The translations under genes and the position numbers were made by a program. 64,000 nucleotides of DNA from an uncultured bacterium (GTDB taxonomy: Bacteria; Desulfobacterota; Deferrimicrobia; J040): NCBI GenBank assembly GCA_964429585.1, contig CAYSCN010000010.1:4622-68621 (forward strand). The letters run 5' to 3'. Positions within the stretch are counted from its first letter, which is position 1. Each line of letters opens with the position of its first letter. Under the pieces are notes generated by a model. The model was not told where the DNA came from. It made no database searches and saw only the letters and a program-made list of their open reading frames with translations. Positions 49,653 through 60,966 of this stretch are shown here, piece by piece.

Positions 49653-50333
49653 ATGGGGAAAAAAACGGAGACGGAGATCAAGCTGGAGGACAAGAAAGAG
49701 GTGAGGAGGGCGGGTGTTTTTCGAGAGTACCTGGAAGCCCTCATAATCGCGATAATCATCGCTCTCTTCATCAGGACGTTCGTCATTCAGGCATTCAAGA
49801 TACCTTCCGGTTCGATGGAGCCCACTCTTCTCATCGGAGACCACATATTCGTCAACAAGTTCATTTACGGTTTCAGAGTTCCTTTTTTGAAGAAGAGAGT
49901 GCTCACCTTCACGAAACCCAAGCGGGGGGACATCATAGTTTTCATATTCCCGGAAGACAGGTCGAAGGATTTCATCAAGAGAGTGGTGGGCGTGGAAGGA
50001 GACGTGATAGAGGTCAGGAACAAAGTTCTCTACGTGAACGGCGTTCCTCAGGACGAGCCCTACGTTCAGCACGTGGATGATGGGGTCATTATCCCCCAGA
50101 GGGACAACTTCGGGCCTTACAGGGTTCCTCCGGGAAAACTGTTCGTCATGGGGGATAACAGGGACAGGAGTTACGACTCCAGGTTCTGGAAGTGCGTGGA
50201 CGTGAGTGATGTTCTGGGTAAAGCTTTCATAATATATTTCTCCATCAAGAACGATCCGGAGTCCCGCTGGTACGAGGTGTGGAAGTTACCTCAGAGGATT
50301 AGGTGGGACAGAATTGGAAAGCTCATCAACTGA
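49653..50333 (+). CDS. lepB: signal peptidase I
   Basis: 226 aa; catalytic PSGSMEPTL Ser box and KRVVG Lys box; GDNRD...S box E. Confidence 0.9.
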   Translation: MGKKTETEIKLEDKKEVRRAGVFREYLEALIIAIIIALFIRTFVIQAFKIPSGSMEPTLLIGDHIFVNKFIYGFRVPFLKKRVLTFTKPKRGDIIVFIFPEDRSKDFIKRVVGVEGDVIEVRNKVLYVNGVPQDEPYVQHVDDGVIIPQRDNFGPYRVPPGKLFVMGDNRDRSYDSRFWKCVDVSDVLGKAFIIYFSIKNDPESRWYEVWKLPQRIRWDRIGKLIN

Positions 50334-52016
50334 GGGTGGCTTTTTTTGCTTCCTGGGGAAGTACATCTTGAAAGTCGATCCCTCCCCGGGAGTGCTCTCC
50401 ACATCCACATATCCGTCGTGTTGCTTCACTATTCCGAAAACTGCCGAAAGGCCAAGCCCCATGGCATCTCTGTGTTCTTTCAACGTGAAGAAGGGGAGGA
50501 ATATTCGATCCAGCAGGCCAGGCGGTATGCCCGGGCCATCGTCTGATACTGCTACATACGCGTAGTCACCCGGTTTGAGCCCGGGCTTGCGAGATGCTTC
50601 TTCGCTCGAAAACGATGCGATTCCAGTATGGATTAATATGTTACCTTTTCCTTCAGTGGCTTCCACTGCGTTTTCTACCAGGAGTCTGAGTGCTTTCTCC
50701 ACGAGCGTTCTGTCGACCTGTGCCGATGGGGCGGGGGTCCAGAAACGGACATTGAGTTTCAGGTTTTCTCCCGCCAGTTTCTGAAGCTCCGGCAAAAGTT
50801 TTCTCACGAAATCATTCAGATTCGTTTCGACCGGGTTGTATGCGTATTTCCTGCCATAGGAAAGCAGTCTTCTGACGAGAGTGGATGAGCGTTCTACGAT
50901 GTTCAATATGGCGTCTATTCGCTCCACCAGTTCGGTCTGGTCGCTGTATTTGAGCTTCAGTATTTCGCAGTATCCGGTTATGGCGGCGAGATGATTGTTG
51001 GTGAAGTGGGCTATTCCGGTGATTATCCTTTCGAGCTCTTCTATTTTTCTCAAAAGAGCCGTCCTGCTTTCTTCCCTGGGTGATGCTTCTGCAAGAGATG
51101 CCATGTCGGGTCTTATCAGTTCGAATACGTCGGCGAGTCCTCTCGTGATGCGCTGAAGGTTTTTTCTGATTTCAGTCGATTTCTCTTCGTACTCCACTCC
51201 TTCCAGGACGAGGCCGTAGAGCTTTCCCGTCAGGATGAGTATGTTTTTTATTTCCCTGGAGAGTTTTTTTTGGGGATTGTATATCTCCACTATGCCCGAA
51301 AGTGTGCCGTTTTCCCGAAACAGTGGGATGGCTACCATGGAGTCGGCTTCGATGAATTTCCTTTTTTCTGGGTCCAGAACCGGGTCGTTCTTCATATCGG
51401 GCGAGTGGTATATGTCACGAGTTTTCGTCAAGTGACCGGCTATTTCTTCCTCACTCCCAAGCTTTATGTAGAGGGAATATATTCTTCCCGTTCTCATTTC
51501 TACGAGCTCCCTGTACTCGATGTATCCATTCCGTGCAGCTCCGGCAGAAGCCGTCTCACCTCCGAGAATTCTGCCGAAGGTGTGGCACATGTCTCTGATT
51601 ACCAGATAGTTGCGGCCTATCTGGAGGAGCTTCTTGAAGTGCTCTTTCCCGAACTGGAAAGACTCGAGGATCTCCAGTATCTCTTTTTTTCTCTCTTCGA
51701 CGCTTTCGATGAAGTTTCCCGCGAGAATAATGGAGGAGGGGATATTGCCTCGCATTACCGGGCGGATAGAGACAACGGAGGAAATCGTTTTTCCCTCGAT
51801 GGAAAAGATCAGGCGAGTGCTGTATTCGCTCCCGGTTTCCAGAACTTTTTTGAGGGCTTTGTCGAGTTCCATTCTGCTCTCGGGAGAAACGAGGCTGGAT
51901 AAGCTTTTGCCGATTAGCTTTTCGCCGATTCCCGTCGTCCTTGTGGCCGGGCCGGATATTCCCGAGATGATTCCGCCCGGTGAGATGAAGAGGATGTAGG
52001 TTCCATTGTCTTCCAT
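50286..52016 (-). CDS. cytoplasmic PAS/GAF sensor histidine kinase (orphan, no adjacent response regulator)
   Basis: 576 aa; no TM; PAS-like N-terminus; GAF-like middle; H-box HFTNNHLAAITGY; HATPase_c with N, D-x-G-x-G (DDGPGI) and G-x-G-L-G-L (GLGLS) boxes. Confidence 0.85.
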   Translation of the reverse strand: MEDNGTYILFISPGGIISGISGPATRTTGIGEKLIGKSLSSLVSPESRMELDKALKKVLETGSEYSTRLIFSIEGKTISSVVSIRPVMRGNIPSSIILAGNFIESVEERKKEILEILESFQFGKEHFKKLLQIGRNYLVIRDMCHTFGRILGGETASAGAARNGYIEYRELVEMRTGRIYSLYIKLGSEEEIAGHLTKTRDIYHSPDMKNDPVLDPEKRKFIEADSMVAIPLFRENGTLSGIVEIYNPQKKLSREIKNILILTGKLYGLVLEGVEYEEKSTEIRKNLQRITRGLADVFELIRPDMASLAEASPREESRTALLRKIEELERIITGIAHFTNNHLAAITGYCEILKLKYSDQTELVERIDAILNIVERSSTLVRRLLSYGRKYAYNPVETNLNDFVRKLLPELQKLAGENLKLNVRFWTPAPSAQVDRTLVEKALRLLVENAVEATEGKGNILIHTGIASFSSEEASRKPGLKPGDYAYVAVSDDGPGIPPGLLDRIFLPFFTLKEHRDAMGLGLSAVFGIVKQHDGYVDVESTPGEGSTFKMYFPRKQKKPPSVDELSNSVPPNPLR

Positions 52017-52261
52017 TGCACTTGTGTGAGCCCCGAGTGATGAAAGCTATTATAAGTCAATTTGGATTTCAAACAATGAAATTGTATAAAGTATATAGCA
52101 GGGCGTGAGTTCTGGAGAGTAGCACTTCGCTCATTTGGCTGTTCTTTAATCTGGCGGGTCGGGGGTGGTAAAATTCAATTTTGAGTTTTCTTTTGTGCAT
52201 GGTGTAATGTTTAGGCTGACGTCATGGATATGACAACAATACTTTGAAGAGGGGTGGCGAT

Positions 52262-53107
52262 ATGGGAGTGGTAGACCTTTTCTGGATATTCGTGATGTTC
52301 TTCGCCCTGCAACCTCTTTTCAAGAAAAGAATGCTGGATGTATCCAGGCAAAAACTAATCGAGAAGATAGAAAAGGAGAGAGGTTCTCGTGTGATTCTGC
52401 TCGTGCACAGGATGGAGACCATGTCTCTTCTGGGATTTCCGATATTCCGTTACATCGATGTCAACGATGCTGAAGAGGTCATTCGCGCTATACACATGAC
52501 GGCTCCGGATGTTCCAATCGATCTGGTTTTGCACACCCCGGGTGGGCTTGCGCTCGCTTCGTTTCAGATAGCCAGGGCACTTGCAAGACACAGGGGAAAA
52601 GTCACCGTGTTTGTGCCTCACTACGCGATGTCTGGTGGCACGATCATCGCTCTGGCCGCGGATGAGATAGTGATGTGTGAGCATTCGGTTCTGGGGCCGG
52701 TGGACCCTCAGCTCGGGCAGGTGCCGGCAGCCTCCGTCCTCAAAGTTGTGAAAACGAAGCCGGTGGAGGAGATAGACGACCAGACGCTCATTCTCGCCGA
52801 CCAGGCGGAGAAAGCCATTGCCCAGGTGAGAGAAAATCTGAAGGATCTATTGATGAAGCACTACGACGAGGAGAAGGCTCAGGAAATAGCCACGGTTCTT
52901 TCGGAGGGAAGGTGGACTCACGACTACGCTATAACCTTCGAGGAGGCGAAGAAGCTCGGTCTGAACGTCTCGCCCGATATGCCCGAGGCGATCCTGGAAC
53001 TGATGGAACTTTTCCCCCAGCCGGTACGGCAGGTGCCTACGGTGGAGTACATACCCGTGCCTAGGGGGGTGGGGAGAAAGGGAGCGAAAGTGGGAGGAGA
53101 TGACTGA
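52262..53107 (+). CDS. SDH-family (ClpP/crotonase-fold) serine protease, membrane-anchored
   Basis: N-terminal TM (VVDLFWIFVMFFAL); LHTPGGLALAS and MSGGTIIALAADE motifs typical of the SppA/SDH serine-dehydrogenase proteinase clan. Start at the ATG 52262, or at the TTG 52244. Confidence 0.65.
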   Translation: MGVVDLFWIFVMFFALQPLFKKRMLDVSRQKLIEKIEKERGSRVILLVHRMETMSLLGFPIFRYIDVNDAEEVIRAIHMTAPDVPIDLVLHTPGGLALASFQIARALARHRGKVTVFVPHYAMSGGTIIALAADEIVMCEHSVLGPVDPQLGQVPAASVLKVVKTKPVEEIDDQTLILADQAEKAIAQVRENLKDLLMKHYDEEKAQEIATVLSEGRWTHDYAITFEEAKKLGLNVSPDMPEAILELMELFPQPVRQVPTVEYIPVPRGVGRKGAKVGGDD

Positions 53108-53150
53108 ATGGCAGGCTTCGTTTTCCCGTGTGCCGATGAAGGGGGGGACA

Positions 53151-53630
53151 ATGAAACTCATACTTGTCAGGCACGGTGAGGCCAACCCTTCAGATGTGGA
53201 CCCAAAGAGGCGTCTTTCTGCTCGAGGAATCAGGCAGGCGGAACTGGCTGGGGAATTCATCTCGAATCTGGGGCTGGTTCCGGACGTCGTTTTCGCCAGC
53301 GTAAAAGCCAGAAGCATTCAGACGGCAGAAATCATCTGTGAAAAGATCGGTCTATCGAAGAGCAGCGTTATCACCAGTTCTTCATTCGCCCCGGAGGGGG
53401 GTCCGGAAGAGATGGGGTGCGAGGTCGCCTCTGCCGGGGGGGATTGTGTGCTGCTCGTGGGACACATGCCGTCTGTAGCGAGATATGCGAGCTTTCTGAT
53501 CACTACTCCGAAGGAGGGGTTTGCCAACATCGCTTTCGACAATTGCCAGGTGGTTCTTCTGACGGGGGAGAGGCCCGACAGAGCGGGAGATTTCCTCCTG
53601 GATCTATCTTACCCTGCGGGCAATTTATAA
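53151..53630 (+). CDS. sixA: phosphohistidine phosphatase SixA-like (histidine phosphatase superfamily)
   Basis: MKLILVRHGEA with the catalytic RHG motif; about 160 aa; second His in LVGHMPS. Confidence 0.75.
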   Translation: MKLILVRHGEANPSDVDPKRRLSARGIRQAELAGEFISNLGLVPDVVFASVKARSIQTAEIICEKIGLSKSSVITSSSFAPEGGPEEMGCEVASAGGDCVLLVGHMPSVARYASFLITTPKEGFANIAFDNCQVVLLTGERPDRAGDFLLDLSYPAGNL

Positions 53631-53655: not shown

Positions 53656-55653
53656 ATGACGAAAAGGGGATTGGATTCGATTTTCCGACCCGAGACTATA
53701 GCAGTAATAGGAGCGTCGACGAATCCGGAAAAGATGGGTTATCAGATTCTGGATAACATAATCCAGGCCGGATTCGAGGGGAAGATATTTCCGGTGAACC
53801 CAAAAGCGTCTGAAATTCTGGGGCTTCAGTGTGTCAACGATATCTCCGAGTTGCCGGAGGGGATCGACCTGGCGGTGTTCATAATACCCGCGCACCTGGT
53901 CCCGTCCAATCTCGACAGACTTGGCGAAAGGGGCGTTAAATCGGCGATAGTCATAACCGGCGGTTTCGCCGAATCGGGTCCAGATGGGGAAAAGCTTCAG
54001 GAAGAGCTTTTGGATGTGGCGAGGAAGAGGAACGTACGGGTCATTGGACCGAACTGTCAGGGAGTTAACTACCCGTATCACAAGCTGTGCGCTTCCTGGC
54101 CCCTGATCACGCTCAAAGGTGACATAGCTTTCGTCTCCCAGAGCGGGACTGTAGGAGCGGCCCTGATCGACTGGGCGTCTCAGGAGAACATCGGTTTTTC
54201 CGCGTTCGTGAGCATGGGGAACAGAGCGGACGTGGATGAATCGGATCTAATAGAGTATTTTTCCAGAGATCCGAATACGAAGGTGATCACACTTTACATA
54301 GAAGGGGTGAAAAGACCGGATAATTTCGTGAACGCTCTCAAAGAGTGTGGAAAACCGATCGTGATATACAAGGCGGGAAGGACCGAGAGGGGGAGAAAAG
54401 CCGCCGAGTCGCACACGAAGTCGCTAGCGGGCAGGGACGAGATTTTCAACGCTCTGTTCAAGAAGTTCGGCGTGGTAAGGGCTGGCAACCTGGAAGAGCT
54501 ATACGATTTTTCCAAGGCTCTGGCCTATTTTCCGAAGCCGAGCGGGAACAGGATGCTGATCGTGACTAGTTCGGGGGGCTCGGCCATAATAGCTACGGAC
54601 ATGGCCGAGGAGCTGGGTTTTTCTGTCGAACCGTTGAGGGAAGAGACATCCAGGGCTCTGAAGGAGAATCTTCCGGATCATTGCATAGTCGCCAACCCGC
54701 TCGATTTGACTGGAGACACGGATGCGGCAAGATACGCGAAGGTTCTCGAGATTGCTGAGGGTGATTACGATGTGATAATGACGATTTTCGGAGATCCGAT
54801 TGCCGGTGCGCACGAAGTGGTGTCCCCTGAAAAACCTCATCTCGTGGCTTACCTTGGAGGAGCGGAGGTAGAGCGGGATGAGAGGGTCAGGATGGGGGAG
54901 AGGAAAATTGCTGTTTTCCCCACACCCGAGAGGGCGGTTATTGCAGCTTCTGTTTATTTATCGAAGGAAAGGAGGAGAGACAAGGTGGGAGACGATGGAG
55001 AAATGAAGGGAAGACTTCTGTCTCCGGTCGAGTCGATGGCGCTTCTCGAGAGATACGGAATTGCTGTTACCCCGTATCTTAAAGCGTCATCTGTGGACGA
55101 GGTCAGGAGGTTTTCGTCCAAACTCGGGTTTCCTGTGGTTCTCAAGATAAACTCGAGGGATGTGTCTCACAAATCCGATGTTGGTGGAGTTGTTTTGGGG
55201 ATAGAGAACGAAGATGAGGCAGAGAAGGCTTTTGGGGAGATGATGGGAAGGTGCAGAGCCAAAGGTATTACCACCGATGGGCTGGTGGTGAGCAAGCAGG
55301 CTGAAAAAGGGACGGAGATAATAGTTGGTGTTGTGAGGGACGAGCAATTCGGGCATGCTCTGGCGCTGGGTCTGGGAGGAATTTTCGTGGAAGTCCTGAA
55401 GGACGTTTCATTCAGGATGATTCCAGTAACTGAAGATGATGTGAGGGAAATGATAGACGAGCTGAAAGGGAGGTCCCTTTTCTACGGAGTCAGAGGGATG
55501 AAGCCGCTGGACGTCGATTCTCTGTGCTCGCTTTGCGTGTCGCTATCCGGGATGGTGAAGGAAAATCCTCAGATTGCCGAAATCGATTTGAACCCGGTCA
55601 TTCTGTATGAAAAGGGTTACACTGTGGTGGACGCGAGGGTGGTTATAGATTGA
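53656..55653 (+). CDS. ADP-forming acetyl-/acyl-CoA synthetase (fused alpha-beta; CoA-binding, CoA-ligase and ATP-grasp domains)
   Basis: 665 aa; N-terminal CoA-binding Rossmann (IAVIGAS...); succinyl-CoA-synthetase-like flavodoxin domain; C-terminal ATP-grasp. No GNAT tail, so not a Pat-type acetyltransferase. Confidence 0.75.
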   Translation: MTKRGLDSIFRPETIAVIGASTNPEKMGYQILDNIIQAGFEGKIFPVNPKASEILGLQCVNDISELPEGIDLAVFIIPAHLVPSNLDRLGERGVKSAIVITGGFAESGPDGEKLQEELLDVARKRNVRVIGPNCQGVNYPYHKLCASWPLITLKGDIAFVSQSGTVGAALIDWASQENIGFSAFVSMGNRADVDESDLIEYFSRDPNTKVITLYIEGVKRPDNFVNALKECGKPIVIYKAGRTERGRKAAESHTKSLAGRDEIFNALFKKFGVVRAGNLEELYDFSKALAYFPKPSGNRMLIVTSSGGSAIIATDMAEELGFSVEPLREETSRALKENLPDHCIVANPLDLTGDTDAARYAKVLEIAEGDYDVIMTIFGDPIAGAHEVVSPEKPHLVAYLGGAEVERDERVRMGERKIAVFPTPERAVIAASVYLSKERRRDKVGDDGEMKGRLLSPVESMALLERYGIAVTPYLKASSVDEVRRFSSKLGFPVVLKINSRDVSHKSDVGGVVLGIENEDEAEKAFGEMMGRCRAKGITTDGLVVSKQAEKGTEIIVGVVRDEQFGHALALGLGGIFVEVLKDVSFRMIPVTEDDVREMIDELKGRSLFYGVRGMKPLDVDSLCSLCVSLSGMVKENPQIAEIDLNPVILYEKGYTVVDARVVID

Positions 55654-55655
55654 GC

Positions 55656-56282
55656 TCAGTCCAGAAAATCTTTCAGCTCCGGGACGGAGAATCCCTTTTC
55701 TCTCAGATAGTTCTTGACTGAGCCCACGTCAATTGTGGGTATCCTCACGAATGCGGCGAAGTTTCCACGGAAGGGCGAAAGGATCATGCTCCTTATCTCC
55801 AGATCGAGCTCCGAGAATGCGTGCAGGAGGGAGTGGAGCGATTCGAAGCTGGGCAGGATGACTTCTATTCTGACTCCAACTCCTTCCACGTCTAGCGTGT
55901 CTATGAACGCGTTCAGGATGTCGGCTTTTGTGATGATTCCAACGAGCTTCTTTCCTTCAACCACGGGCAGAGCGCCGAATCTTCTTCTGGAAAGGATGAG
56001 GAGGGCGTCTTCTATGGTATCCCATGGCGTTACGGTGACGACATTTCTCGTCATCACTTCTCCGACTGTTTTCGAGAACCCGCGTCTGTTTTCGTCTGTC
56101 CCTGCGTTGTCGAATGCTGCGTTTCGAATGTCTGTGTCTGAAAGAATGCCTACCAGGATTTCCCCCTCTACCACGGGTAGGTGTTGAATCCTGTGGTCTT
56201 TCAGAAGTTTGGCCGCTTCTTTCAGGGTTTGAGCCGGCGAGACAGTGATCACCTTTCTGGTCATTCTCCTCCCGACGAACAT
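55656..56282 (-). CDS. CBS-pair protein with C-terminal ACT-like domain (AcuB-like)
   Basis: MFVGRRMTRKVITVSP...HLPVV (CBS1); VMTRNVVTVTPWDT...ALPVV (CBS2); C-terminal regulatory fold. Start set at the ATG after GGAGGGAAAC; the longer ORF-track start is rejected. Confidence 0.7.
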   Translation of the reverse strand: MFVGRRMTRKVITVSPAQTLKEAAKLLKDHRIQHLPVVEGEILVGILSDTDIRNAAFDNAGTDENRRGFSKTVGEVMTRNVVTVTPWDTIEDALLILSRRRFGALPVVEGKKLVGIITKADILNAFIDTLDVEGVGVRIEVILPSFESLHSLLHAFSELDLEIRSMILSPFRGNFAAFVRIPTIDVGSVKNYLREKGFSVPELKDFLD

Positions 56283-58117
56283 GTCGTTTCCCTCCCCTGT
56301 AGTGTGAGTATGTGTGCCGTGACCGACGATGCCAGGGCTTCGAGATTGTATCCGCCCTCTAGGACGGAAACTACCCTGCCGTGGCATGTCTCTTCGGCGA
56401 CGTTCAATAGTTTTTCCGTAATGATTCTGAAACCCTCCTCGGTAAAGTTGAGATCGGCGATCTGGTCGCTTGTGTGACCGTCGAAGCCTGAGGAGATGAG
56501 GATGAGTTCGGGTTGAAACTTCCTGATCTCAGGTTCGATTTCTTCTTCGAACGCCCTTATGAGATCCTCGTTCCCCGCGTGAGGTCTGAGGGGGATATTC
56601 AGGGTGAACCCTTCGCCCCTACCTTTTCCCCGCTCCATGCGCCGTCCAGTTCCAGGGTAGCAGAACGAGGGATGTTCGTGAACGCTGCAAAAGTAAACTG
56701 TATCGTCGTCTTCGAAAAGCTCCTGGGTGCCGTTTCCGTGATGCACGTCCCAGTCGAGGATGAATATCCGGTTGACCCCGTAGGCCATTTTTGCGTATAC
56801 GGCTCCGGCTGCCACGTTGTTGATGAAGCAGAAGCCCATTGCCCTGTTTCTCCCCGCATGGTGTCCCGGTGGGCGAATCAGGCAGAAGACGTTGTCGACC
56901 CTTCCGTTCATGACCGCATCGACCGCAGCCATTACCGCTCCGGCGGCTAACATGGCTGCGTCGTAGCTTCCTTTCGAGATCGAGCAGTCTCTGCTCTGGA
57001 ATATTTTGTCTCCGCGCGAAGCTGCTTCCTTGAATTCGGCGAGATATTTTTCATCGTGTATGTTCAGCAGAACTTCTTCGTGTGGGAAATATGGCTTGAG
57101 CTCTATGAGGCTGCGCCTCAGTCCGTTTTTGTCCAGTTCCTTGAGTATCGCGCTGATTCTCGCAGGCTGTTCGGACTGTCCTCTTCTTGTTCGGTGATTC
57201 AGAAACTCAGGGGAATATACGAGACCGGTTCTCCTTCGCGTGTCCGTGTATATGGTCTTGTATCCGTCCCAGGGGGCCGAGGTGAGGAGGAACGCTTTCC
57301 CCAGGGGGAATGTGACCTCTTCGCTGAACTCTTCGGTCTTCGTTCTCGAGTAGTAGCCTTTCTGGTTCCTGTAAACCCGCACTTTTATGTCTCTTCTGAA
57401 AAGAGCGAAGTCGTAAGCGTGGTTCAGGCGATTTATTTCTATGCTGGTAACGGGGAGGCCGAGTTCTTTCACGTACTCCTCGAGCTCGCGTTTTTTCTTC
57501 TCCAGGTTGTCATCCTCCAGAAAGTCGAATCCCTCCTTGGCCCAGTAATACTTTCCCACGGACAGAGACGCTTTCAGCCTGAACTGGTGGAATCCGAGTT
57601 CCTTGAAGAGCTTTTCATAGTATTCGAAGAGAGCGGATGCGTAGCCGGAGGCCTGTTTGGTGAGACTTATGGTTTCTATGTAGACGACTCTTTTTTCTTC
57701 CACCCTGAATGGAAACAGCAAAAGCCCCCTGAATTCCCTGTGGGTGTAGAAGAAAAGTGTGAGCTCTCCCACGTGATTCTCGTCGTTTTGTATCTGCGTG
57801 TCGTATATGATTCTGTCTTTGCCGAAGTAAAGAGCGTTCTCCACGTGAGTGAAGCCGCTCACTGGTTTGGAAAGCCGCTCGAAAAACTCGTGAGGCAGAA
57901 CGGGATGAGAGAAGATCTTCTTCCACGTGGATATGAGTTTCCTGATCGGGGGAGTGCTCTTTATGAGGAACTTGGCTCCACCTCCGCCCGCTTTTTTCAA
58001 GATGCTTGGGTCCAGCTCGGCGCCGAAAATCTTTCCGGCGGAGATCAACTGTTCGAAACTTTCCCTCAGCTCACTTTTCGAGAAGCGCTTTGTTTCGGTG
58101 CCGGAAATCTTGTTCAT
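56261..58117 (-). CDS. fusion of an N-terminal GNAT-like acetyltransferase fold with a C-terminal histone-deacetylase-family (HDAC/AcuC/APAH) amidohydrolase
   Basis: 618 aa. C-terminal 320 aa carry HDAC hallmarks (IRPPGHHA, DWDVHHGNGTQ, SGFDGH, LEGGY). The N-terminal 300 aa contain a GNAT-like beta4-alpha3 segment (VYIETISLTKQASGYASALFEYYEKLFKELGF, fitting Q/R-x-x-G-x-A). Confidence 0.6.
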   Translation of the reverse strand: MNKISGTETKRFSKSELRESFEQLISAGKIFGAELDPSILKKAGGGGAKFLIKSTPPIRKLISTWKKIFSHPVLPHEFFERLSKPVSGFTHVENALYFGKDRIIYDTQIQNDENHVGELTLFFYTHREFRGLLLFPFRVEEKRVVYIETISLTKQASGYASALFEYYEKLFKELGFHQFRLKASLSVGKYYWAKEGFDFLEDDNLEKKKRELEEYVKELGLPVTSIEINRLNHAYDFALFRRDIKVRVYRNQKGYYSRTKTEEFSEEVTFPLGKAFLLTSAPWDGYKTIYTDTRRRTGLVYSPEFLNHRTRRGQSEQPARISAILKELDKNGLRRSLIELKPYFPHEEVLLNIHDEKYLAEFKEAASRGDKIFQSRDCSISKGSYDAAMLAAGAVMAAVDAVMNGRVDNVFCLIRPPGHHAGRNRAMGFCFINNVAAGAVYAKMAYGVNRIFILDWDVHHGNGTQELFEDDDTVYFCSVHEHPSFCYPGTGRRMERGKGRGEGFTLNIPLRPHAGNEDLIRAFEEEIEPEIRKFQPELILISSGFDGHTSDQIADLNFTEEGFRIITEKLLNVAEETCHGRVVSVLEGGYNLEALASSVTAHILTLQGRETTCSSGGE

Positions 58118-58120
58118 GAG

Positions 58121-58633
58121 TCAGGGAGCGAACCTCGTGAAAACGAAATCCTGTGATGAGGCCCTCGCTTTGTGACACGGGAAACAGCTCGCGTATACCT
58201 TCGTGTCTTCTACGGGTTTTCCGTCCACGAATCTACCGAATCCCCATCCGCCCGTGTCGGCGTATTTTTTGGAGTCCTTGACCATGAACTCCTGACGCAT
58301 GGGTTTGCCCGGTACCAGGGCCGACTCCCAGGCAGCGTGTTTTTCCGCTTTGTAAGCCAGTTTGGCTATGATGGTTCCGTCGGGGAATGGCAGAGTTCCT
58401 TTTTTGAAAGCTTCGATAGCGATGTCGTTTCCCAGAATGAGCCGAATTTCCCCTTTGTCGGTTCGATGGGAGGCGGATATGACGGCCCAGTTTCTGTAAC
58501 CTTCCGGCAGCTCGACGCCGGTTGGCGCTACCGCTTTTTTGCCTTCACCGGCGAGTGGATTGTCGATACAGAGGAGTGTGATGAGGAGGAAGATTGGCAG
58601 GAACGTCGCAACGATTATAACGGCTTTTTTCAT
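58121..58633 (-). CDS. cytochrome P460-family protein (single C-terminal CxxCH)
   Basis: 170 aa; signal peptide; C-terminal CFPCH haem site; size and Lys-rich beta-sandwich region as in cytochrome P460/c'-beta. Confidence 0.65.
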   Translation of the reverse strand: MKKAVIIVATFLPIFLLITLLCIDNPLAGEGKKAVAPTGVELPEGYRNWAVISASHRTDKGEIRLILGNDIAIEAFKKGTLPFPDGTIIAKLAYKAEKHAAWESALVPGKPMRQEFMVKDSKKYADTGGWGFGRFVDGKPVEDTKVYASCFPCHKARASSQDFVFTRFAP

Positions 58634-59130
58634 GGTGACCCTCCTTTTTTCTCCCTGCGCCCGGCGTTTTTCTTGGGGGCGAAGAAAGTTCTCTCGAAGG
58701 TGAGAACCACTTCCCCATTCTGATTGAGGCCTTTCGTTTCGACGGTTACGATTCCCATATCAGGCCGGCTTTTGGATTCTCTCTTGTCGATTATTCTGCT
58801 TTCCGCGTATAAGGAGTCACCGTGGAAGACGGGTTTCAGGAACCTGATTTTATCTATCCCGAGGTTGGCTACGGTTTTTCCGCTAAGGTCTCTGACGGTC
58901 ATTCCGTAGACCAGGCAGAAGGAAAAGTATCCGGTGACCAGCCTTTTTCCCCATTCAGTTTCTTTCGCGTAATGCTCATCCAGGTGGATGGGGTGTTGAT
59001 TCATCGTGAGCAGCGTGAATAGCGTGTCGTCGAACTCCGTGACGGTTCGCCCCGGGAAGTGCTTGTAAATGTCGCCCACGATGAAATCTTCGTAATATTT
59101 CCCGAACGCCTCTTTCCCGTCTATTATCAT
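58630..59130 (-). CDS. MaoC-like (R)-specific enoyl-CoA hydratase / hotdog-fold dehydratase
   Basis: 166 aa; FTLLTMNQHPIHLDEHYA hotdog active-site region. Confidence 0.75.
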   Translation of the reverse strand: MIIDGKEAFGKYYEDFIVGDIYKHFPGRTVTEFDDTLFTLLTMNQHPIHLDEHYAKETEWGKRLVTGYFSFCLVYGMTVRDLSGKTVANLGIDKIRFLKPVFHGDSLYAESRIIDKRESKSRPDMGIVTVETKGLNQNGEVVLTFERTFFAPKKNAGRREKKGGSP

Positions 59131-59960
59131 TTTTCCCTCTCCGGTTCAGCTGGTTTGCCGACCTCCGGCTTTTTTCTTTCCGGGGGTTTACCTTCGAGAA
59201 TCCGTAGCAGTTCTTCCGCCGGCCTGTAGCCGGTTACGACTCTGCCGTCCGGGAGTATGAGCGTCGGGGTGGAGCGTATCCCGAGTTTTTTCGCAAGTTC
59301 TATGTTTTCGTCTATCACCTTTGTTTCACACGTGGGTTTCGGGATGGTTTTGCCCTCGAAGCTGTCTTCCAGAAGCTTCATCGATTTCTCGCACACGATG
59401 GCTTTTGCCACATCATAGGCGTCTTTGTGTATTTTGAGGGGAAACAGGATTATGAAGAACGCGTAGGAGTCGTTCTCCTTGACTATTTTCTTCAGTTCTC
59501 CGTGGAGCTTTTTGCAGAACGGGCATCTGGGATCGGTGAAGACCAGCACTCTGCGGGGGGCGTTTCTGTTTCCTATTACGAGGGTGTTTTCGAGGGATAT
59601 CTTCACTTCTTTTATCTTGCGGACCTTGATGAGGCGTTCTCTGGTAATGTTCTTCCGGTCTGGTATCCTCAGTATGTTTCCGGAAAAAAGGTATTTTTTG
59701 GAGTAGTCGATGTAAGCCACGTAGGCTATTCCTTTCCTCAACACGTCCACTTCCCACAATCCCGGGACTTCCGAGTTTCGGACCTCTTTTACCTCATCCA
59801 CCAGGTCCTTGAGAATCGTCTTCGCTTCCTCCACGGTCAGGGAGTGGCAGTCGCTGCACTTACCCTCGCCGCAGCCGTTGCTTTGAAATCCTTGGGATGT
59901 GGATGGAATGACGAGAAGCAGGGCGAAAAGCAGGGAGAAAAACGCTAAGAATCTGCTCAT
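59127..59960 (-). CDS. DsbC/DsbG-like periplasmic thiol:disulfide isomerase with an extra N-terminal Cys cluster containing a CxxCH
   Basis: 277 aa; signal peptide; thioredoxin-fold active site CPFC; N-terminal GCGEGKCSDCHS cluster. Confidence 0.7.
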   Translation of the reverse strand: MSRFLAFFSLLFALLLVIPSTSQGFQSNGCGEGKCSDCHSLTVEEAKTILKDLVDEVKEVRNSEVPGLWEVDVLRKGIAYVAYIDYSKKYLFSGNILRIPDRKNITRERLIKVRKIKEVKISLENTLVIGNRNAPRRVLVFTDPRCPFCKKLHGELKKIVKENDSYAFFIILFPLKIHKDAYDVAKAIVCEKSMKLLEDSFEGKTIPKPTCETKVIDENIELAKKLGIRSTPTLILPDGRVVTGYRPAEELLRILEGKPPERKKPEVGKPAEPEREK

Positions 59961-60314: not shown

Positions 60315-60338
60315 AATATGTATGTTAACATACATATT
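60315..60338. promoter_or_regulatory. perfect 24-bp palindrome AATATGTATGTTAACATACATATT, putative LexA operator (SOS box) in the lexA promoter
   Basis: Exact reverse-complement symmetry about GTT|AAC; 22 bp upstream of the lexA start codon, overlapping the probable -10 region. Typical autoregulatory placement. Confidence 0.7.
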
Positions 60339-60360
60339 ACCTCGTTCGGGGAGGGGAGAT

Positions 60361-60966
60361 ATGGAGAGGCTCACGGAAAAGCAGAGGGAGGTGCTGGAAT
60401 TCATCAGGAATTACGTTCTTGAACGGGGCTTCGCGCCCTCGGCTAAAGAAATAGCCGCCAGATTCGGCATAGCGGAGAAAAACGCCTTCTATTACCTCCA
60501 GGTGCTGGAGAGGAAGGGTTACATAAGGAGGCGTCGCAAAACTCCCAGGGTGGTGGAGTTCACTTCCAAATCCAGGGTTGCTCCGGTGGTGCTTCCCGTG
60601 GTTGGCAGGGTCCAGGCGGGAAAGCCGGTGACCGCGGTGGAGAATCTGGAAGGGGAGATAGTGATGGACAGAACCCTGGTGGGGGGAGAGGAGCTGTTCA
60701 TGTTGAGGGTGAAAGGAAACAGCATGGAGGGGGCTCACATCCTGGACGGAGACCTGGTCCTGGTGAGACCCCAGAAGAAGGTTGAGAGCGGAGAAATAGT
60801 GGTGGCTCTCGTGGGAGAGGAAGCGACCGTGAAGAGGATATATTGCGAGGGGGGGAAGGTGATACTCAGGGCGGAAAATCCCGCCTACGAGGACATCGTG
60901 GTGGATGGAAACGGAGAGCACTTCGAGGTAATTGGGAAGGTGGTGGGTGTGTTTCGGAAGATTTGA
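60361..60966 (+). CDS. lexA: LexA repressor (S24 self-cleaving peptidase)
   Basis: MERLTEKQREVLEFIRNYVLERGFAPSAKEIAARFG winged-HTH; AG cleavage site (RVQAGKP); catalytic Ser (VKGNSMEG) and Lys (VKRI). Start moved to the ATG after GGAGGGGAG; the ORF-track ATG at 60322 lies inside the operator. Confidence 0.9.
   Translation: MERLTEKQREVLEFIRNYVLERGFAPSAKEIAARFGIAEKNAFYYLQVLERKGYIRRRRKTPRVVEFTSKSRVAPVVLPVVGRVQAGKPVTAVENLEGEIVMDRTLVGGEELFMLRVKGNSMEGAHILDGDLVLVRPQKKVESGEIVVALVGEEATVKRIYCEGGKVILRAENPAYEDIVVDGNGEHFEVIGKVVGVFRKI

Follow-up and report, generated by a model that had tools for sequence, protein, structure and literature searches.

The window analyzed here, a stretch of 64,000 nucleotides from an uncultured bacterium of the Deferrimicrobia (contig CAYSCN010000010.1, positions 4,622 to 68,621), contains an open reading frame (ORF) of 618 codons (56261..58117, minus strand) whose product joins a GNAT-like acetyltransferase domain to a class-II histone deacetylase (HDAC) domain. 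It is followed on the same strand by an overlapping gene for an AcuB-like regulator of 208 residues (55656..56282). We propose, giving the idea an even chance of being right, that the two genes encode a two-headed acetylation toggle, in which a divergent GNAT writer is packed on a class-II zinc eraser and works with a translationally coupled AcuB-like protein composed of a Bateman and an ACT domain. The system is probably a compact, hitherto undescribed variant of the AcuABC acetylation switch. All functional statements made here derive from architecture, conservation and context. The 618-residue ORF had been pointed out in an earlier note on this DNA and is present as described there.

To assess the fusion, we scanned species representatives (one genome per GTDB species) and found 73 loci; after duplicates and fragments were dropped, the non-redundant set, with the window included, comprised 74 loci (L numbers below). 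The HDAC domain lies in the same uninterrupted frame in 63 of the 74, with ~600–625 residues between the beginning of the N-domain match and the stop codon. A search with the full-length protein recovered at least 120 clusters (90% identity) of 586–686 residues that cover at least 95% of the query and whose source names are just 'histone deacetylase' or 'AcuC-like enzyme'. Most hosts belong to the Deferrimicrobia ('Deltaproteobacteria bacterium' metagenome-assembled genomes) or to the Thermoanaerobaculia/Acidobacteriota. The full-length AlphaFold model had a predicted local distance difference test score (pLDDT) of 85.5 and a predicted template-modeling score (pTM) of 0.86, and the junction (~residues 285–315) had pLDDT values of 83–93. 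Since the junction is well ordered and the pTM is this high, the GNAT-like and HDAC domains are predicted to form one rigid unit. The suspicion, also raised in the earlier note, that an assembly or frameshift error near 57200 joins two adjacent genes can be dismissed for practical purposes: the same continuous frame recurs across different studies and assemblers, in at least 120 clusters and in 63 independent genomes, and the HDAC domain begins within ~3 residues of where the GNAT-like domain ends, across a junction that is ordered in the model. A search with the N-terminal domain alone, which returned mainly stand-alone proteins, had suggested that the fusion is rare; the genome scan and the full-length search overturned this impression.

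The C-terminal part of the protein (residues ~293–610; 56288..57241, minus strand) is a zinc deacetylase domain of class II, similar to HDAC6 and HdaH. Pfam Hist_deacetyl matched residues 316–605 with an E value of 4e-98, and the best matches in the Protein Data Bank (PDB) were the second catalytic domain (CD2) of HDAC6 and the bacterial HDAH PA3774, together with the 'lysine deacylase' 5zmp. The phmmer alignments start at residues 293–297 with both catalytic domains of HDAC6, indicating that virtually no linker follows the N-terminal module, and at residue 312 with the bacterial HdaH/PA3774. On the PA3774 side the alignment begins at residue 36, past the L1 loop region, and the GNAT-like domain takes that place. 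Among 50 fused homologues, H419, H420, D457, D546 and Y590 were invariant and H459 was at least 90% conserved; these residues make up the His-His dyad, the Asp-His-Asp zinc ligands and the catalytic tyrosine. The R415-P416-P417 and E587-G588-G589-Y590 motifs were invariant as well, and in bacterial enzymes RPP and EGGY mark robust deacetylases (short-acyl) with a small foot pocket (PMC11532494). Judged from its sequence, the HDAC domain is complete and class-II-like with an intact catalytic set, in agreement with the earlier note.

The same branch of the HDAC family includes HDAC10 and the bacterial ApaH as close relatives, and HDAC10 was among our PDB matches (1e-51). One could therefore imagine a small-amine cycle, in which an SSAT-like N-acetyltransferase fused to an acetylpolyamine amidohydrolase of the ApaH/HDAC10 kind would act on polyamines, diamines, amino sugars or another metabolite and control the free polyamine pools. 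The equivalent of the Glu gatekeeper of HDAC10 is an isoleucine (I553, within D-P/Q-I-A; consensus D-P-I-A), which fits the 'PLG' of HDAC6 and also the 'PIS' of bacterial polyamine deacetylase, and many GNATs acetylate small molecules, with AAC(2') appearing among the fold matches described below. However, the nearest relatives of known structure deacetylate lysine (HDAC6 CD2, PA3774/HdaH and 5zmp) and no ApaH chain was among the 60 best PDB matches. Polyamine genes numbered zero in the neighborhoods examined, the AcuB-like partner belongs to a type so far known solely as a regulator of a protein deacetylase, and Pat-like and AcuC-like genes found nearby point to protein acetylation. We consider the small-amine cycle rather improbable.

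The N-terminal part (residues ~13–292; 57242..58081, minus strand) was assigned to the GNAT fold by structure prediction. A homologue search with residues 1–310 collected 135 proteins that form a well-conserved family (alignment A1), and an AlphaFold2 model of the domain built on the family alignment reached a pLDDT of 86.4 and a pTM of 0.82. Its elements follow the GNAT order (beta1-alpha1-alpha2-beta2-4-alpha3-beta5-alpha4-beta6-7), with a helical insertion at residues 202–238 and additional C-terminal strands as extras. In a Foldseek comparison with the PDB, the best 50 matches were all GNATs, including AtaT2, Gcn5, NatD, AAC(2'), Naa50 and TacT. The earlier note had postulated such a fold, which these results bear out, but it had placed the module at residues 80–230; the domain is in fact ~280 residues long and includes the helical insertion and a C-terminal extension.

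The note had also singled out an acetyl-CoA-binding signature within the peptide TKQASGYASALFEYYEKLFKELGF (residues 153–176). This is motif A, Q155-A-S-G158-Y-A160 (57638..57655, minus strand), which follows the pattern Q/R-x-x-G-x-G/A of the GNAT pyrophosphate-binding loop; in the model it sits where strand 138–152 meets helix 159–173, just before helix alpha3. G158 and Y159 were invariant in both family alignments (A1 and A3), S161 in A1 and A160 in A3, each of the latter two being at least 90% conserved in the other alignment. Q155 was at least 90% conserved in A1 and A3, and G158 was conserved to this extent even in distant relatives. The signature is thus conserved and located as expected, at the beta4-alpha3 junction. 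Outside motif A, Y105, Y190, Y191, W192, E195 and H233 were invariant and D106, E148 and K274 at least 90% conserved, and the blocks S186-V-G-K-Y-Y-W-A-K-E-G-F197 and P271-L-G-K-A-F-L-L278 are made up of residues that vary little or not at all. When 1.84 billion representative proteins were searched with the family profile, 359 relatives were returned, the distant ones matching profile positions ~165–305. When 59 small distant relatives were scanned with Pfam, 15 matched Acetyltransf_1 (best 3e-7) and 8 matched Acetyltransf_10, and in P0161 the Pfam GNAT region overlaps the region matched by the family profile. As far as sequence is concerned, the support for GNAT membership is transitive, by way of these Pfam matches of distant relatives. 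We conclude that the domain represents a very divergent clade of the GNAT superfamily that has no model in current domain libraries.

We also noticed a Lys/Gly-rich loop in this domain, PSILKKAGGGGAKF (residues 37–49; 57971-58009, minus strand), which was modeled with low confidence. Its family consensus is P-x-I-I-K-K-S-G-K-G-x-R-F; K41 was invariant in the fused-family alignment, K42 reached at least 90% conservation in this alignment and in that of the N-domain family, where G45 and G47 did so too. In sequence the loop recalls sites of acetylation, among them the histone H4 tail and the 'SGK' motif of Acs. A role in auto-acetylation or as a pseudo-substrate is conceivable, as is a contact with the CoA phosphate.

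The HDAC part was missing in 11 of the 74 loci, which carry stand-alone GNAT-like genes. In Thermoanaerobaculia they lie where the fused genes lie in other genomes, with the synthetase gene described below divergent upstream and genes for Aldedh, Amidohydro_2 and a Pat-like acetyltransferase downstream. The C-terminal tails of the stand-alone proteins retain 'TNxPRxTG', the sequence that forms the first HDAC strand in the fused proteins, and in a rough neighbor-joining tree the stand-alone and fused forms interleave. On the basis of the shared locus, the remnant and the interleaved tree, an ancestral fusion followed by repeated HDAC loss is the likeliest history. Some genomes have a fused copy together with a ~289-residue stand-alone paralogue (L078/L002, on the same 876-kb contig, L034/L063, L038/L068 and L059/L070). 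The paralogue lies in an unrelated neighborhood in these genomes, in L002 near a conventional GNAT gene and a patatin gene.

These stand-alone forms bear on the question of whether the GNAT-like domain is catalytic at all. It might instead sense acetyl-CoA or CoA, or serve as a platform on which substrates dock, and in this way tune or target the deacetylase. In that case the protein would be an eraser only, with two regulatory inputs (acetyl-CoA, and adenine nucleotides through the AcuB-like protein). The domain is extremely divergent from catalytic GNATs by all of Pfam, NCBIfam, the PDB profile search and hhalign, and the model packs it rigidly against the HDAC domain. Moreover, the conserved motif A proves a site for a CoA-type ligand and nothing more, and Pat/PatZ provides the established precedent of a non-catalytic domain, resembling an ADP-forming acyl-CoA synthetase (ACD), that regulates a GNAT (PMC12184503). 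Nevertheless, in at least two clades the domain has been kept as a gene of its own where the HDAC was lost, and it also occurs in additional paralogues beside the fusion. Its survival alone at the same locus implies that it has a function independent of the HDAC part. HDAC-free relatives also exist in phages and in giant multidomain proteins, and many invariant polar and aromatic residues lie beyond motif A. A purely sensing or docking role is unlikely in our estimation.

The C-terminal half of the domain, from motif A to the 'PLGKAF(L/M)L...W' extension, has distant relatives elsewhere (P0136-P0267), among them phage proteins including 'minor capsid/head' fusions, fusions with NUDIX and pentapeptide domains, and giant proteins of 1000–5000 residues. 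Pfam found zero domains in two of the giants scanned (P0137 and P0141). The phage relatives include proteins of the Bacillus phages CP-51, JL, Shanette and PBC5, and the domain matches phrog_25452 and phrog_27103. In a Foldseek comparison with viral models, the best matches (lowest E value 5e-11) were uncharacterized phage proteins, including a head-morphogenesis fusion; annotated GNATs came next. The phage virion and polyvalent-protein versions (phrog_25452 and phrog_27103; CP-51, JL and Shanette; PMC5512222) share with our family the segment from motif A to the extension, but they are joined to head-morphogenesis or other effector domains and never to an HDAC, and the identity is ~30% over half a domain.

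This kinship suggests another origin for the system, a domesticated conflict-type effector, in which the GNAT-like domain would acetylate a non-lysine target such as aminoacyl-tRNA, with the deacetylase and the AcuB-like protein serving as built-in antidote and regulator. The nearest relatives outside the family are the phage proteins (phrog_25452/27103, SPO1-like Bacillus phages and 'minor capsid/head' fusions), GNATs of polyvalent proteins have been described as injected effectors (PMC5512222), and the best PDB fold matches include the toxins AtaT2, AtaT, TacT and GmvT. On the other hand, the module is chromosomal, single-copy and vertically conserved over two phyla-level lineages, with metabolic neighbors; the loci read showed no mobile-element hallmarks nearby, and stand-alone copies occur without an adjacent antitoxin-like gene. 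We know of no HDAC-family enzyme that deacetylates aminoacyl-tRNA. An effector of this kind seems very unlikely.

The second component of the system is the CBS gene. Its raw ORF spans 55656..56387, and the most plausible start is the ATG at 56282, which is preceded by the Shine-Dalgarno sequence GGGGAGGG ~7 nucleotides upstream. From this start, the gene overlaps the last 22 nucleotides of the fusion gene, and the same 22-nucleotide overlap was seen in independently called genes of L077 and L078. A CBS gene follows the fusion in all 57 fused loci with enough downstream sequence (in L061 judged by eye) and is absent wherever the HDAC part is absent. Pfam CBS matched in two stretches (1.5e-32). 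The PDB matches were Thermus thermophilus TTHA0829 (5awe, 5e-25), Geobacillus stearothermophilus AcuB (9s4w, 7e-25) and Bacillus subtilis AcuB (9s4v/9qs7); in phmmer, residues 4–171 aligned to AcuB, beyond the Bateman domain (two CBS motifs), and residues 87–201 to the 'CBS/ACT protein' 1vr9. The protein gave no direct match to Pfam ACT. It is, over residues 1–200, 32% identical (BLASTP, E value 7e-29) to a Thermoanaerobaculia protein (L025, 12496-13125) in which Pfam ACT and a TTHA0829-like ACT matched at residues 135–200. The note had called this overlapping gene an AcuB-like CBS-ACT gene, and the end-to-end alignment to a Pfam-confirmed CBS+ACT protein, with TTHA0829 and AcuB as best PDB matches, upholds the assignment: to the extent that sequence can tell, the gene is AcuB-like in architecture and context.

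AcuB of Bacillus and Geobacillus is a Bateman+ACT dimer that binds AMP, ADP, ATP and diadenosine tetraphosphate (Ap4A); through its ACT domain it binds and inhibits the deacetylase AcuC in a nucleotide-controlled manner, and translation of the two genes, acuB and acuC, is coupled (PMC13121692, PMC13039410). The two reports differ on the effect of Ap4A, which either reinforces the inhibition of AcuC or abolishes it (PMC13121692 vs PMC13039410). By analogy, the AcuB-like protein would regulate the class-II HDAC head of the fusion.

Converging on the AcuB-like gene, with 2 nucleotides between the stop codons, lies a gene for an ADP-forming acyl-CoA synthetase of 665 residues in the fused alpha-beta form (53656..55653, plus strand). 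It contains the Pfam domains CoA_binding_2, Succ_CoA_lig and ATP-grasp_5. The NCBIfam acetate--CoA ligase models scored below their equivalog cut-offs (545 bits against 1200), which leaves room for more than one acyl specificity. The catalytic histidine motif SHT(K/R)SLAG (SHTKSLAG in the window protein) is kept in the orthologues, which are 55–65% identical, and is missing in Pat-like paralogues. An orthologue was present within 5.5 kb in 11 of the 27 fully flanked fused loci, and overall at 19 fused and 5 stand-alone loci. It takes two gene orders: in the lineage of the window it is convergent downstream (the window, L012, L045 and L072), and in Thermoanaerobaculia it is divergent and ~100–170 bp (103–168 nucleotides) upstream, which is the geometry of acsA and acuABC. 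The tail-to-tail synthetase of the earlier note is thus present and recurrent. Crude ORF clustering of the neighborhoods, in which antisense shadow ORFs were a contaminant, did no more than confirm that the synthetase and CBS genes recur as neighbors. In many Deferrimicrobia the two-gene module stands in unrelated neighborhoods, which implies that it may act more globally.

A SixA-like histidine phosphatase gene (His_Phos_1, 176 residues; 53100-53630, plus strand) lies 26 nucleotides upstream of the synthetase gene, and this pair is kept in L012, L045 and L072; the synthetase it neighbors works through phospho-histidine. The start of the SixA-like gene is overlapped by a gene for a ClpP-like SDH-type protease (52244-53107), and a gene for a PAS-HisKA-HATPase sensor kinase (50286-52016, minus strand) lies upstream of this block.

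Other acetylation genes were observed around the module in Thermoanaerobaculia. In six loci (L018, L025, L031, L033, L037 and L040) a second CBS+ACT gene and a class-I deacetylase gene stand directly after it. In L025 (12496-14252), these encode a second CBS+ACT protein (Pfam CBS, ACT and TTHA0829-like ACT) and a class-I HDAC of 379 residues with HDAC2, HDAC8 and Rpd3 as best PDB matches, which by sequence is a canonical acuB-acuC pair beside the fused system. In seven loci (L001, 9492-12332; L023, L053, L058, L061, L071 and L075), a Pat-like protein of ~940 residues, with an N-terminal GNAT and an ACD-like domain that lacks the SHT catalytic-histidine motif, is encoded a few kb downstream of the module or of its stand-alone remnant, accompanied by an aldehyde dehydrogenase gene, an Amidohydro_2 gene and a gene for a PAS protein. 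With the canonical pair and the Pat-like genes close by, these loci look like hubs of acetylation control.

We envisage that the two-headed protein works as follows. The GNAT-like head would acetylate lysines of client proteins using acetyl-CoA, and the HDAC head would strip the same acetyl marks. The CBS pair of the AcuB-like protein would read adenine nucleotides (AMP/ATP, possibly Ap4A), and in one nucleotide-loading state its ACT domain would dock on the HDAC head and block it. Net acetylation would then track the energy charge and the acetyl-CoA supply. The most likely client would be the neighboring ADP-forming acyl-CoA synthetase or another acetyl-CoA-metabolizing enzyme, unless the module acts globally. 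We infer, in particular, the catalytic activity of the GNAT-like head, the protein nature of its substrates, the inhibition of this HDAC by the AcuB-like protein and the identity of the client. A more specific version, which we put forward only tentatively and consider doubtful, holds that the two genes form a self-contained switch, with writer and eraser on one chain plus an AcuB-like sensor, whose primary client is an ADP-forming acetyl-CoA synthetase and whose writer belongs to an unrecognized GNAT clade shared with phage virion effectors.

Several observations weigh against an acetylation toggle. The function of every family member is predicted from sequence. GNATs have no universal catalytic residue, so that activity cannot be read from the sequence of the N-terminal domain. 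Profile scans recognized Hist_deacetyl, whereas residues 1–315 gave no Pfam or NCBIfam match above threshold, the sole trace being IDM1_C with an E value of 0.063. The Foldseek matches to GNATs are weak, with E values of ~1e-3 and target-normalized template-modeling scores of ~0.4. When the family profile was compared with PDB sequences it hit no GNAT, giving only chance matches (lipocalin and T4 lysozyme, E values of 0.2–0.7), and hhalign of the family against a Pat-GNAT alignment placed motif A alone in register, without significance. The isoleucine gatekeeper described above leaves room for polyamine substrates. With regard to the client, no synthetase gene lies within ±5.5 kb in 16 of the 27 fully flanked loci, and the search for a conserved lysine by the catalytic histidine of the synthetase, a candidate acetylation site, gave no signal, the position after HT being K or R. 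Finally, the enzyme that AcuB is known to regulate is of class I, not class II.

The closest known counterpart is the AcuA-AcuB-AcuC system of Bacillus subtilis and Geobacillus with its divergent acsA, which has the same three parts, a GNAT-type writer, a Bateman+ACT sensor and a zinc eraser of the HDAC family (PMC13121692, PMC13039410, PMC11255334). In both systems, translation of the sensor gene is coupled to that of the deacetylase gene, and the locus adjoins an acetyl-CoA-forming synthetase gene, which in Thermoanaerobaculia is divergent. The window system differs in having writer and eraser on one polypeptide and in its order, (writer-eraser)-sensor instead of writer-sensor-eraser. Its eraser is class-II and HDAC6-like, whereas AcuC is class-I; its writer is a member of a distinct GNAT clade of ~290 residues that lacks annotation; its synthetase is ADP-forming (ACD), whereas AcsA is AMP-forming; and the window system is known from sequence alone. 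Measured against the canonical operon (three genes, a class-I AcuC and a divergent AMP-forming acsA), it would be acuABC-like in its working but is not a member. The best 50 Foldseek PDB matches included no chain named AcuA, the AcuA sequence itself not having been compared. The idea of an acuABC-like logic in fused and rearranged form, put forward in the note, has gained strength from the reports that AcuB inhibits AcuC (PMC13121692, PMC13039410) and from the divergent, acsA/acuABC-like synthetase of Thermoanaerobaculia.

Other known enzymes share parts of the architecture. The bacterial cluster-1 deacylases (Pseudomonas aeruginosa PA3774 and Klebsiella pneumoniae HdaH; PMC11532494) and HDAC6, the best sequence matches, have the RPP and EGGY motifs, the His-His dyad, the zinc ligands and the tyrosine in common with the fusion. 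Known HdaH enzymes are single-domain proteins that form tetramers through the N-terminal L1 loop (PMC11532494), whereas the N-terminus of the fusion is a GNAT-like domain of 290 residues, and an AcuB-type partner, which the fusion has, is unreported for cluster-1 enzymes. The main text of the 2024 survey of bacterial deacylases makes no mention of a GNAT-HDAC fusion (PMC11532494). Pat/PatZ, a GNAT with a domain like nucleoside-diphosphate-forming acyl-CoA synthetases, likewise combines a GNAT with another large domain that is linked to acetyl-CoA metabolism, and regulates CoA-forming synthetases; in loci of Thermoanaerobaculia, Pat-like genes are found a few kb from the module. The fusion partner here is, however, a deacetylase and not an ACD-like regulatory domain, and hhalign between the two GNAT families was not significant. 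Bifunctional enzymes that modify and demodify under the control of sensors include GlnD (uridylyltransferase/uridylyl-removing enzyme, with ACT domains), GlnE, AceK and HprK/P. The analogy lies in opposing activities on one chain, with small-molecule sensing, by ACT or Bateman sensors, setting the direction; the chemistries and folds differ. To our knowledge, no acetyl-based enzyme of this type has been described. Our literature searches, which covered 8 million papers, retrieved no GNAT-HDAC fusion, no bifunctional acetyltransferase/deacetylase and no acetylation of an ADP-forming acetyl-CoA synthetase.

In the window, the fusion gene is the fourth of a packed same-strand string of five, in which it is preceded by genes for a DsbC-like thioredoxin (59127-59960), a MaoC hydratase (58630-59130) and a cytochrome P460 (58121-58633) and followed by the AcuB-like gene. 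The upstream genes (58121..59960, minus strand) are joined by 4-nucleotide overlaps, and a 3-nucleotide gap precedes the start of the fusion. Among the loci scanned, MaoC-P460 stands upstream of the fusion only in L004, L012 and L045 besides the window; the DsbC-like/MaoC/P460 string is thus a lineage-specific operon context. The string combines secreted redox proteins with a cytoplasmic acetylation module. A LexA-like ORF (60322-60966, plus strand), called on its translation alone, is divergent from the operon.

It is an open question how bacteria coordinate the acetyltransferase and deacetylase activities that oppose each other in lysine acetylation, and the AcuB-AcuC link was worked out only in 2026. 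What is new here, read from sequence, is a putative variant of the Acu-type switch, with an unmodeled GNAT clade as a by-product. Because this clade of ~290 residues has been missed by current domain databases, more than 100 proteins are annotated merely as 'histone deacetylase'. A natural fusion with an obligate AcuB-like partner would offer a minimal two-protein system for reconstituting reciprocal regulation, and AcuB-type control, known for class-I enzymes, would reach class-II deacetylases as well. ADP-forming acetyl-CoA synthetases may be targets of acetylation in uncultured Deferrimicrobia and Thermoanaerobaculia; if this is true, an ACD-type enzyme would for the first time be seen to be controlled by acetylation, and the fusion protein would be the first acetyl-based bifunctional toggle enzyme.

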